Source: a virus
Lineage: Duplodnaviria > Heunggongvirae > Uroviricota > Caudoviricetes
DNA: 31,073 nucleotides
Direction: 5' to 3' (one strand)
IMG/VR virus record: IMGVR_UViG_2602041669_000008
In this document: piece by piece, positions 2,839 to 24,759 of the stretch
Numbering within the stretch: the first letter of the stretch is position 1
How the letters are laid out: the number at the start of each line of letters is the position of its first letter
Made by a program: the position numbers and the translations under genes
The notes under the pieces: generated by a model
Told to the model about the DNA's origin: nothing
What the model saw: only the letters and a program-made list of their open reading frames with translations
Databases searched by the model: none

Positions 2839-3399
2839 TTAGTGCATGATGTTTGCCATCTCATAGGCGTCAGCCAGTAACTCCATCTCTGACTTTTTCA
2901 GCAAGGTGAATTCTTTCTTGCCTCCAACCACACCATCGGCATGAACAGGGACCAGCCAGGGGTATTTTTCTCTTACTTCAGCCGGTGCTGCATGCTGGTG
3001 GTGCCATCTACAAAGTGGCAACTGCTTTTTGTGACAACCCGGCGCGGTACGACCGGAGATATGGTGCAGAGACACCTCTTCAGATATTACTCCATGCATA
3101 TAGCAGGCAATGCAGGGGAGAGCGCCAAGAGCATTGGCTATACGCCGTTCCTCCGCCGTCGGTGTTCGTCCCTTCAAGCCACGAGATTTTATTTTTACCG
3201 CACTTTTCCGCGTTTTGCTGGCTGGTGGGCGCTCTTTCTGTTTAGCGATACGGCGGTCGATAGAATCCCGCATTTTCTGATATTGCGATTCTCTCCAGGC
3301 GGGGTCAGCCAACTTTTCCCGTTGCCGAGCGATCGCTCGTTCTCTGGCTGCCTTCTGCCACTCGCGGCGCTGTTCAAGTTTTTGTTCGATTGTTTTCAT
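2839..3399 (-). CDS. ref: Ref-type HNH nuclease (186 aa; basic disordered N-terminus, Cys/His HNH motifs)
   Basis: ATG 3397-3399 in frame with track ORF 2839-3477; motifs CIACYMHG...HHISGR...CHKK...CRWHHQH; length and position next to cre match P1 Ref. Confidence 0.75.
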   Translation of the reverse strand: MKTIEQKLEQRREWQKAARERAIARQREKLADPAWRESQYQKMRDSIDRRIAKQKERPPASKTRKSAVKIKSRGLKGRTPTAEERRIANALGALPCIACYMHGVISEEVSLHHISGRTAPGCHKKQLPLCRWHHQHAAPAEVREKYPWLVPVHADGVVGGKKEFTLLKKSEMELLADAYEMANIMH

Positions 3400-3404
3400 A
3401 TGGC

Positions 3405-3430
3405 AAAAAAAAGGCGGCCTAATGGCCGCC
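3405..3430 (-). terminator. Strong intrinsic terminator on the minus strand ending 6 nt before the ref ATG
   Basis: Plus strand reads A8-GGCGGCC-TAAT-GGCCGCC, so the minus-strand RNA is a perfect 7-bp stem followed by U8. Confidence 0.7.
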
Positions 3431-3490
3431 AATGATGTCAAGGAGTTAAGTAATGGCAACGTCTTCGTAGTTGACAAAAACTGCGGCTAA

Positions 3491-3514
3491 ATTATAGCAA
3501 TCAATTAGAGCAAT
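3491..3514 (-). promoter_or_regulatory. C1 operator-like site (ATTGCTCTAATTGATTG, 14/17) abutting a TATAAT -10 on the minus strand
   Basis: Direct read; -10 TATAAT is plus 3491-3496 reverse-complemented; operator 3498-3514. Confidence 0.55.
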
Positions 3515-3580
3515 GGTAGATATTTTATTTATCGCGAATCACATTTTTTCACTTCAGTACCTGTGTGCTATACTCCTTCT

Positions 3581-3650
3581 TGATTGATTGGATGCGGAAT
3601 ACAAACCCGCTCTTTTGTGCAGCCTGGCTCCTTGCCAGGCTTTTTTATTT
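3581..3650 (+). ncRNA. Candidate small RNA (about 70 nt): extended -10 promoter, 5' motif UGAUUGAUUGG, intrinsic terminator
   Basis: TGcTATACT at 3566-3574; motif at 3581-3591; stem GCCTGGC/GCCAGGC (3622-3640) followed by TTTTTTATTT; no plus-strand ORF. Confidence 0.35.
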
Positions 3651-3956
3651 CATCATGGAAGCTGTTAACGCTTTGGATCTTGCTGAACTGATTGAAAGGG
3701 CATTGTTTACCTTACCCAGGAGTTCGCCAAATTCCGCCATCACTCTAGTAAGCCCGCGCCGCGCTTCCTCCTCCGTTGCATTCATCACAAAATGTTCAGC
3801 ACTCCGCATGCTTTTAACGGGGAACGCAACAGATATCGAGTCGATATCAGGCATCCTATCGCTCAACTTTACGGTGACAATGACAGATGGTGACTGAATT
3901 TGAGAGCTTACAGACAGCACCACATATTTTCCGTCTATTTTGAAATCCTTCCGCAT
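3645..3956 (-). CDS. Hypothetical protein (103 aa) directly downstream of cre
   Basis: Track ORF with protein-like composition; GGTGA 4 nt upstream of the ATG; the overlapping plus-strand ORF 3565-3897 is less protein-like. Confidence 0.5.
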   Translation of the reverse strand: MRKDFKIDGKYVVLSVSSQIQSPSVIVTVKLSDRMPDIDSISVAFPVKSMRSAEHFVMNATEEEARRGLTRVMAEFGELLGKVNNALSISSARSKALTASMMK

Positions 3957-3972
3957 GTGTCACCATAAATAT

Positions 3973-3989
3973 CAAATAATTAGAGCAAT
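3973..3989 (-). promoter_or_regulatory. C1 operator-like site (ATTGCTCTAATTATTTG, 14/17) between the cre stop and the downstream ORF
   Basis: Direct read. Confidence 0.45.
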
Positions 3990-4006: not shown

Positions 4007-5038
4007 CTAGTTGCCATCTTCCAGCAGGCGCACCATTGCCCCCGTTTCACTATCCAGGTTACGAATGTAGTTCATGACAATATTTACGTTGGTCCAGCCA
4101 CCAGCTTGCATGATCTCCGGTATTGAAACTCCGGCGCGGGCCATATCTCGCGCGGCACCGACACGGGCACTATGTCCAGACCAGGCCAGGTATCGCTGAC
4201 CAGAGTCATCTTTTGCCCCGTAAATCAATCGGTGAGTTGCTTCAAAAATCCCTTCCAGGGCGCGAGTTGATAGCTGGCTGGTGGATGATGGCGCGGCAAC
4301 ACCATTTTTTCTGACGCGGCAAAACAGGTAGTTATTCGGATCATCAGCTACACCAGAGACAGAAATCCATCGCTCAACCAGTTTAGTTACCCCCAGGCTA
4401 AGTGCCTTCTCTACACCAGCGGTGCTAACCAGCGTTTTCGTTCTGCCAATATGGATTAACATTCTCCCACCGTCAGTACGTGAGATATCTTTAACCCTGA
4501 TCCTAGAAATTTCGGCTATACGTAACAGGGTGTTATAAGCAATCCCCAGAAATGCCAGATTACGTATATCCTGGCAGCGATCGCTATTTTCCATGAGTGA
4601 ACGAACCTGGTCGAAATCAGTGCGTTCGAACGCCAGCGCCTGTTTTGCACGCTCACCGGCATCAACGTTTTCTTTTCGGATCCGTCGCATGACCAGTGAA
4701 ACAGCATTGCTGTCACTTGGTCGTGGCAGCCCGGACCGACGATGAAGCATGTTTAGCTGGCCCAAATGTTGTTGGATAGTTTTTACTGCCAGACCACGCG
4801 CCTGAAGATATAGAAGGTAATCGCGAACATCTTCAGGTTCTGCGGGAAACCATTTCCGGTTATTCAACTTGCACCATGCCGCCCACGACCGGCAAACGGA
4901 CAGAAGCATTTTCCAGGTATGATCAGAAAACGCCTGGCGATCCCTGAACATGTCCATCAGGTTCTTGCGAACCTCATCACTCGTTGCATCGACCGGCAAT
5001 GCAGGCAAATTTTGGTGAACGGTTAACGAATTAGTCAT
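4007..5038 (-). CDS. cre: Cre site-specific tyrosine recombinase (343 aa)
   Basis: Translation is near-identical to canonical P1 Cre as I remember it; differences noticed: N-terminus MTNSL instead of MSNLL, E39D, two A-to-S changes, C-terminal D-to-N; loxP lies about 820 bp upstream. Confidence 0.97.
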   Translation of the reverse strand: MTNSLTVHQNLPALPVDATSDEVRKNLMDMFRDRQAFSDHTWKMLLSVCRSWAAWCKLNNRKWFPAEPEDVRDYLLYLQARGLAVKTIQQHLGQLNMLHRRSGLPRPSDSNAVSLVMRRIRKENVDAGERAKQALAFERTDFDQVRSLMENSDRCQDIRNLAFLGIAYNTLLRIAEISRIRVKDISRTDGGRMLIHIGRTKTLVSTAGVEKALSLGVTKLVERWISVSGVADDPNNYLFCRVRKNGVAAPSSTSQLSTRALEGIFEATHRLIYGAKDDSGQRYLAWSGHSARVGAARDMARAGVSIPEIMQAGGWTNVNIVMNYIRNLDSETGAMVRLLEDGN

Positions 5039-5430
5039 TTATTATGCGTGATTTTAACAGTTAAGCCTTGTTCATGAAGTATCTCATCAATAATTCGAAT
5101 CACATCCCCTGGTAGATCATCGTTCTCGAAATATCTGTGATCGGGGATTTCTACAGTGATTGGGGTTGCTGCTTTATGCAAAATCCGAACAATCTTTTTT
5201 TCTTTTTTGCATGTTGCATATTCAGCCTCTTCGATATCTATCCAGCTCGCACCATCAAATTGCTGGTAAACCCGAGTGTATAGTAAGCGATTTCGCTTTA
5301 CTTCTTCTGCTAACTCCCAAATTGCAACAGCCATAGCACGTTCATTTTCATTCGTTCCAGGGTTAGCAGCTTTTTGTTTTGCGTCGTTCAGTAAGGCGTT
5401 TACCTTGGCATCTGTCAGGCCATTAAACAT
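5035..5430 (-). CDS. Hypothetical protein (131 aa) translationally coupled to cre
   Basis: Track ORF; GGTGA 3 nt upstream of the ATG; stop TGA overlaps the cre ATG (ATGA); no family recognised. Confidence 0.6.
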   Translation of the reverse strand: MFNGLTDAKVNALLNDAKQKAANPGTNENERAMAVAIWELAEEVKRNRLLYTRVYQQFDGASWIDIEEAEYATCKKEKKIVRILHKAATPITVEIPDHRYFENDDLPGDVIRIIDEILHEQGLTVKITHNK

Positions 5431-6020: not shown

Positions 6021-6037
6021 ATTGCTCTAATAAATTA
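6021..6037 (+). promoter_or_regulatory. C1 operator (ATTGCTCTAATAAATTA, 16/17) in the spacer of a TTGACA-N17 promoter upstream of coi-c1
   Basis: TTGACA at 6015-6020 immediately followed by the operator; a weaker operator-like site lies at 5938-5954. Confidence 0.65.
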
Positions 6038-22601: not shown

Positions 22602-22618
22602 AGATTTATTAGAGCAAT
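22602..22618 (-). promoter_or_regulatory. C1 operator-like site (ATTGCTCTAATAAATCT, 16/17)
   Basis: Direct read; overlaps the stop codon of the HAD-like gene. Confidence 0.6.
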
Positions 22619-24693: not shown

Positions 24694-24710
24694 ATTGCTC
24701 TAATAAAAAA
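24694..24710 (+). promoter_or_regulatory. C1 operator-like site (ATTGCTCTAATAAAAAA, 14/17)
   Basis: Direct read; in inverted orientation to the site at 24743-24759. Confidence 0.5.
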
Positions 24711-24742: not shown

Positions 24743-24759
24743 GGAATTATTAGAGCAAT
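24743..24759 (-). promoter_or_regulatory. C1 operator-like site (ATTGCTCTAATAATTCC, 14/17)
   Basis: Direct read; immediately after the stop of the glycosyltransferase-like gene. Confidence 0.45.

Follow-up and report, generated by a model that had tools for sequence, protein, structure and literature searches.

How is the gene of a host-toxic, RecA-dependent nuclease (PMC4713147) transcribed when an intrinsic terminator stands directly before its start codon? The question is raised by ref in a caudoviral sequence of 31,073 nucleotides (IMGVR_UViG_2602041669_000008), the whole stretch of DNA analysed here and referred to as the window. Over cre–c8–ref the sequence shares 94% identity with phage P1 and 98% with phage RCS47, and the window belongs to a P1-type phage-plasmid. 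The three open reading frames (ORFs) lie on the minus strand, in the gene order common to P1 (AF234172): cre (4007–5038), c8, also named cra (3645–3956), and ref (2839–3399). The last, labelled ref in the P1 and RCS47 records, encodes the RecA-dependent HNH nuclease of 186 residues plus a stop codon, and the protein is 98% identical to a database ‘Ref family protein’ (PF16786).

The promoter of ref carries a binding site for the C1 repressor. The operator Oref (ATTGCTCTAATTGATTG, 3498–3514, minus strand) is identical to the Oref protein_bind feature of AF234172 and matches the 17-bp asymmetric C1 consensus ATTGCTCTAATAAATTT at 14 of 17 positions. It is one of 11 sites in the window with at most three mismatches to this consensus, compared with 0.18 expected. 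On the same strand, promoter P2ref comprises a poorly matching −35 element (CTACCA, 3514–3519), the homologue of the −35 that AF234172 gives for P2ref, and an extended −10 element (TGcTATAAT, 3491–3499), in which the hexamer TATAAT (3496–3491), annotated as the −10 in P1 and retained in nearly all variants, is preceded by TG at 3499–3498. Oref occupies the spacer between the −35 (3519–3514) and the extended −10 (3499–3491), and the operator overlaps the core promoter. At the homologous bases, the P1 GenBank record (AF234172 / NC_005856) annotates both elements of P2ref, −35 and −10, with Oref as a monovalent C1 operator in the gap, and a predicted promoter, P1ref; the terminator is absent from it as a feature. 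Further upstream, the minus strand contains CGATAAA (3528–3534), the motif of the ref 5′ regulatory region at which H-NS binding has been reported (PMC4713147). In P1, c1 controls the transcription of ref (PMC3973344; PMC4713147), and RT-qPCR showed a 73-fold rise of ref mRNA 30 min after inactivation of C1.100, an induction that is lower and later than that of other C1-controlled genes (PMC4713147). The identity of the operator with P1 Oref and the published c1 control of ref bear out the C1-controlled promoter proposed in a first-pass annotation of the window.

Transcription from P2ref is predicted to start near 3484, approximately 7 nt past the −10 element, and to give a terminated leader transcript of approximately 80 nt (3405–3484, minus strand). 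The leader ends in a stem-loop, GGCGGCC-AUUA-GGCCGCC (3413–3430), and a U8 tract (3405–3412), both on the minus strand. With seven G-C pairs, a 4-nt loop and the U-tract directly after it, the hairpin has the stem and tract of an intrinsic terminator, a class that calls for a GC-rich stem of 5 bp or more, a loop of 3–8 nt and a run of at least 5–6 U. Folded alone it has a free energy of −16.2 kcal/mol (z = −4.5), and none of 200 shuffled sequences is as stable. Operator, TATAAT, leader and hairpin with U8 all agree base for base with the positions that the first-pass annotation had given on the minus strand. The minimum free energy fold of the whole leader consists of a 5′ hairpin and the terminator, and leaves the ref start region after the hairpin unpaired; the 5′ hairpin (3484–3455) was set aside, as this product of single-sequence folding does not reappear in the RNAalifold consensus of related leaders. 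A REP-like repeat was also considered for the terminator stem-loop and rejected, with one copy in the window and one per classical P1-type phage record. Between the c8 stop codon and the far end of ref, a scan of the minus strand detected no second terminator-like site. The operator 17-mer, −10 hexamer, hairpin, U8 tract, spacer and start codon are identical in P1, and the leaders differ at two of approximately 85 positions; relative to the P1 ref locus, the window is a close variant with nothing of substance different.

The conservation of this arrangement was examined in the P1 group, sampled as 80 c8-anchored viral loci and several plasmids. The hairpin is present in every ref-bearing c8-anchored locus examined. 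In an alignment of 30 distinct P1-group leader sequences, all seven stem pairs are kept in 30 of 30 leaders: four changes produce wobble pairs and none disrupts the pairing. The loop varies at three of its four positions (ATTA, ATCA, GAAA, TAAA). The RNAalifold consensus of these 30 leaders recovers the terminator alone. The T-run measures 6–10 nt in the c8-anchored loci, and the spacer to the ATG reads GCCAT, GACCAT or ACCTT, in every case without a Shine–Dalgarno (SD) sequence. Three blocks are invariant in the alignment, GUCAACUAC.., ACUCC and UGACAUCAUUGG, the first of which extends as GUCAACUAC-AA-A around 3475–3461; these blocks are beyond what a simple attenuator explains. No covariance model of Rfam 15 (riboswitches, T-box, RAT, nut/put and others) matches the leader at or above its gathering score, the best match being suhB/mmgR with 22.4 bits against a threshold of 41 (E = 0.09). 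Two transcriptome papers on P1vir contain nothing useful on the ref leader.

More distant ref genes point to selection on the terminator. Homologues with 61–67% protein identity are present in elements of Salmonella, Klebsiella aerogenes and Pantoea alvi and in IMG/VR contigs, among entirely different neighbour genes. These loci share one layout: a C1-type operator (for example ATTGCTCTAATATTTAT), a TATAAT −10, a leader of 60–70 nt, a hairpin, U7–8 and ref. The Salmonella/Klebsiella-type loci (group 2) have the hairpin GACGGUC-UUCG-GRCCGUC, followed after the U-tract by an SD-poor spacer of 10–13 nt and then ATG or GTG, two genes using GUG; these ref genes likewise lack an SD. The Pantoea hairpin is GCCGCC-UCCG-GGCGGC, and the called ref start lies approximately 94–115 nt past the terminator. 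Across lineages, 99% of the alignment cells in the stem are paired, and compensatory changes occur at three of the seven pairs (G-C↔A-U; C-G↔U-A with a U-G intermediate; G-C↔C-G), giving a covariation score that none of 500 shuffles reaches. Because pairing is kept through compensatory changes across lineages, comparative analysis identifies the terminator as a selected part of ref regulation. Among homologues with at most 58% identity (16 genome and 17 viral loci), a simple scan detected no operator/terminator module, which restricts this arrangement to the P1-proximal part of the Ref family. A Ref-alignment scan of viral contigs was filled by close P1 relatives and added nothing.

The terminator abuts a start codon with little means of recruiting ribosomes. 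The spacer GCCAU (3400–3404, minus strand) contains no SD, and the best anti-SD pairing within the 20 nt upstream of the ATG at 3399 is −1.5 kcal/mol. The median over all ATGs of the window is stronger (−2.4 kcal/mol), and ref has the weakest pairing among the 26 long ORFs, most of which have values of −5 to −12.8 kcal/mol. The first-pass annotation was correct in its description of an SD-less ref start directly behind the hairpin, and stability (z = −4.5) and covariation mark that hairpin as a genuine and selected terminator. Its suggestion of leaderless-like initiation fails, as no promoter is positioned to start at the AUG: the region approximately 7 nt upstream of 3399 contains no −10-like hexamer, being the T8 run itself, and P1ref would leave a leader of approximately 26 nt. 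The unpaired, C/U-rich hexamer CUCCUU (3440–3445, minus strand), which it had proposed to sequester an SD, has no such partner in ref and stays unpaired in the minimum free energy fold. As a whole it is not conserved, some variants having CUCCGU or CUUCUU instead. Its core, CUCC, is found again beside the hairpin in leaders from Salmonella and Klebsiella; group-2 leaders share little with those of the P1 group beyond this core.

No conserved in-frame upstream start with an SD, the observation that the annotation had named as decisive against its reading, was found. The leader contains no ATG or GTG and no translatable ORF with an SD. The frame is open in the window from a TTG at 3477 through the ATG, and an N-terminally extended Ref (a 212-aa ORF) could start there, with ribosomes melting the hairpin and the annotated start being wrong. 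The TTG at 3477 is not preceded by an SD, Ref proteins of the P1 type and of group 2 are homologous from the annotated M-K onwards, and the junction of loci that lack ref falls exactly at the T-run. In close relatives the T-run is 7–10 nt and the spacer 5 or 6 nt long, which alters the frame, and because these length differences break the connection between TTG 3477 and the ATG, the extended ORF is judged not to be real; the reading is scarcely credible. Translational coupling through an ORF ending at an AUGA overlap was also rejected: the overlapping frame stops at 3440, has no later start and varies in relatives.

Since a genuine terminator lies between P2ref and ref and abuts the ref start, expression of ref from P2ref requires read-through, as the first-pass annotation had argued, and the rival explanations concern how this is achieved or avoided. 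Regulated attenuation, in which an antiterminator RNA (GUUGCCA 3460–3454 paired with UGGCGGC 3431–3425) or a phage or host factor acting at the leader blocks disables the terminator in lytic growth, is unlikely on balance. It has a precedent in the attenuation idea itself, put forward in the annotation and already published for P1 ref, where the title of Windle, Laufer and Hays (1988, J Bacteriol 170:4881) names an ‘attenuator-antiterminator’. Further points in its favour are the invariant leader blocks, the position of GUUGCCA next to the 5′ hairpin, a potential anti-antiterminator, the 73-fold rise of ref mRNA after C1 inactivation (PMC4713147) and folding of transcripts truncated before the 3′ arm, for which the predicted probability of upstream pairing of the 5′ arm is approximately 1. 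However, the gain of −6.3 kcal/mol is equalled by 16% of dinucleotide-shuffled leaders, and by 42–62% in other P1-group variants; the helix shows no covariation in the 30 leaders, with 18 of 207 cells unpaired; and the adjoining 5′ hairpin is missing from the RNAalifold consensus. Group-2 leaders offer a different partner (ACUGUC) that is merely marginally better than chance, and neither a leader ORF with start and SD, a conserved frame nor an Rfam family match was found. The trp, his and pyrBI attenuators of Escherichia coli have the same plan of a promoter, a short leader and a terminator right before the gene, with a possible 2:3 alternative pairing; unlike at ref, they encode leader peptides, and the alternative pairing in the ref leader does not exceed chance and does not covary. 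BglG/SacY-RAT, lambda N-nut and HK022 put resemble the ref locus in placing a terminator between promoter and gene, and the conserved bases that overlap or precede the 5′ arm provide a candidate protein site of that kind, whereas the leader has no Rfam match to such elements. We know of no antiterminator in P1. An RNA antiterminator route to ref mRNA is not supported, and a protein factor is possible.

The terminator could instead be bypassed, ref mRNA coming mainly from P1ref and P2ref giving only the short RNA. P1ref, annotated as predicted in AF234172 and found by our scan with a TG extension, lies on the minus strand (TTGCCA-16-TGaCATCAT, 3432–3459) and consists of TTGCCA (3459–3454), a 16-nt spacer and the hexamer CATCAT (3437–3432). 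This second annotated promoter was not part of the first-pass annotation; its start would fall inside the 5′ arm of the hairpin, and a transcript beginning there would not form the stem. TGnCATCAT or TGnAATCAT is present in 30 of 30 P1-group leaders, but these bases are equally explained as part of a terminator element that recurs elsewhere. The −10 is weak (CATCAT), the −35 varies (TGGCCA, GTGCCA, GAGCCA), and P1ref has no equivalent in the ref leaders of Salmonella and Klebsiella, which nevertheless keep the terminator. P1ref also has no overlapping operator, although ref is strongly C1-dependent. As the main route P1ref is improbable, and it is at best a minor, lineage-specific contributor.

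The module also occurs without its gene. Approximately 15 of 86 c8-anchored loci have no ref and retain the operator, −10, leader, hairpin and T6; in plasmid pEA24_3, tblastn detects no ref anywhere. In these loci an icd-ant (KilAC antirepressor) cassette runs convergently, its stop codon 3–5 nt past the T-run, and none of the 14 stem columns varies among the ref-less variants, whereas 25 of the 64 leader and loop columns do (p = 0.003). Such persistence, including that in pEA24_3, and the invariant stem would suit a trans-acting small RNA (sRNA), the C1-repressed transcript of approximately 80 nt being itself the product and ref merely placed behind it. Hfq-type sRNAs typically have a 3′ GC hairpin that runs into a long U tail, together with a C/U-rich stretch left unpaired. 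The leader RNA has these hallmarks, and its own promoter, P2ref, and its intrinsic terminator, the hairpin with U8 as the long tail, would together yield an RNA of approximately 80 nt. SroA and SroG, derived from E. coli riboswitches, and rnTrpL of Sinorhizobium are examples of leader- or attenuator-derived small RNAs; like them, the ref leader is a short RNA with its own promoter that ends at an intrinsic terminator upstream of an ORF, and some elements keep the ref module where the ORF is missing. In contrast to them, the ref leader yielded no evidence of a target, a seed or a chaperone. Complementarity of at least 11 nt to the leader is absent from the rest of the 31-kb window, where only 10-mers occur, as by chance; no significant Rfam match was obtained; and the leader blocks are conserved in close relatives only. 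The element GAAATCACTGGCGGCCGAAAGGCCGCCTTTTT, single-copy at the ref leader in classical P1-type phages, is also found in pEA24_3, where it marks the 3′ end of a second icd-ant cassette, likewise convergent. Because the same element stands at this second 3′ end, the ref-less junction is most simply a product of recombination at a shared terminator, which accounts for persistence without ref, and the terminator of these loci most simply blocks Pref and c8 transcription that would run antisense into ant. That the leader of P1-type phage-plasmids is a stand-alone lytic-phase sRNA, or a dual leader and sRNA, acting in trans through the unpaired GUCAACUACGAAGAC and ACUCCUU, is very improbable; if true, it would explain the full module with invariant stem in those related elements, approximately 15% of the sample, that lack ref.

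Passive partial read-through combined with inefficient, SD-independent translation accounts most simply for all lineages and for the induction of ref mRNA, and the ref control region of this P1-type phage-plasmid is probably, as that of P1, a leaky attenuator. In lysogens, C1 bound to Oref would occlude P2ref and keep it silent. Once C1 is inactivated P2ref would fire, and most transcripts would end approximately 80 nt on, 5 nt before the ref AUG. The minority that reads through would be the ref mRNA, partial read-through presumably being its main route, and P1ref, as a weak promoter, may add to it in the P1 group. This mRNA would be poorly translated, from a start without SD in an unstructured U/A-rich stretch, by SD-independent and possibly S1-assisted initiation. 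The terminator would in addition insulate ref from cre–c8 read-through in lysogens, because it is the first minus-strand terminator after c8. The first-pass annotation had missed this position downstream of the cre–c8 unit. Taken together, a fixed leaky attenuator, C1, H-NS and a weak translation start would hold the toxic Ref at a very low level. Several points count against a fixed leaky attenuator: a perfect stem of seven G-C pairs with U8 should terminate very efficiently, so that passive read-through alone may not suffice; the authors of the 1988 study, as its title indicates, argued for an antiterminator; the invariant leader blocks go beyond such a mechanism; and the module, its stem unchanged, is kept by elements without ref.

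The comparative results narrow the question of how ref mRNA passes the terminator. They show that selection acts on the terminator in elements of Escherichia, Salmonella, Klebsiella and Pantoea alike, and that neither the proposed RNA antiterminator nor the annotated P1ref is conserved across ref lineages. Work by Lu, Lu and Gottesman in 1989 is said to have dealt with the P1 ref regulatory region as well. The promoter–operator–terminator arrangement of ref itself has been known since 1988, to judge by the title of Windle et al. How tightly Ref is repressed matters for lysogen fitness and for phage–antibiotic synergy, because Ref is toxic to the host and raises the killing of P1 lysogens by ciprofloxacin (PMC4713147).

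The absence of a recognizable Shine–Dalgarno sequence is not unique to ref, the gene for a RecA-dependent nuclease. The neighbouring genes cre and c8 also lack one (anti-Shine–Dalgarno pairing energies of +1.5 and −2.8 kcal/mol, respectively, for the minus-strand regions 5039–5058 and 3957–3976 upstream of their starts), and the SD-less start is therefore a property common to the whole cre–c8–ref gene block. Among the more distant loci of the Salmonella/Klebsiella type, two ref genes use a GTG start codon. The ref leaders of this group (L086:1381–1530, L087:1386–1530, L187:1079–1230 and L188:1074–1230, each in the coordinates of its own locus) carry a C/U-rich stretch, CUCC(U)CCUGAC, that leads straight into the terminator's 5′ arm; a CUCC core adjoining the hairpin recurs in these leaders.

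On the minus strand, a site resembling the operator of the phage repressor C1, ATTGCTCTAATTATTTG (three mismatches), precedes the c8 start by 17 nt, at 3973–3989. Its counterpart in P1, ATTGCTATAATTATTTG, has four mismatches, and no operator is annotated upstream of c8 at that position in P1. c8 may be under C1 control in the lineage of the window. Further strong operator-like sites in the window include a facing pair approximately 50 bp apart, at 24694–24710 (plus strand) and 24743–24759 (minus strand), and sites at 1541–1557, 6021–6037 and 22602–22618. These additional sites probably correspond to multi-operator regions already known for immunity and early genes of the P1 type.

The plus strand between c8 and Pref, the C1-controlled ref promoter, may encode an antisense small RNA of approximately 70 nt (3546–3650). 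A sequence scan identified a promoter-like site, TTTTCA-17-TGnTATACT, at 3546–3574, followed downstream by a canonical terminator, AGCCUGGC-UCCUU-GCCAGGCU with U6AUUU, at 3621–3641; the fold of the 72-nt candidate has a z-score of −3.2. This hairpin was ruled out as the c8 terminator because the U tract is absent on the c8 strand. The P1 record has no annotated feature in the matching region, and the Rfam matches there, to SorX, MicX and GcvB, were weak and all far under threshold.

The Pref leader is apparently a hotspot of rearrangement: unrelated DNA, either inserted or replacing ref, interrupts it at differing points in several plasmids and contigs (L004:1700–1720, L005:1685–1700, L035, L075 and L082). 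The ref gene is absent from approximately 15% of the sampled P1-like elements. In ref-less elements, the stop codon of a convergent icd–ant cassette, encoding a KilAC antirepressor, directly adjoins the Pref leader and terminator (junction regions L002:1641–1760, L003:1640–1760, L284:6680–6730 and L285:23870–23995). pEA24_3 has four icd–ant cassettes, and the hairpin element of the Pref terminator is also present at the 3′ end of another of them, which suggests that these cassettes spread or recombine at this terminator.
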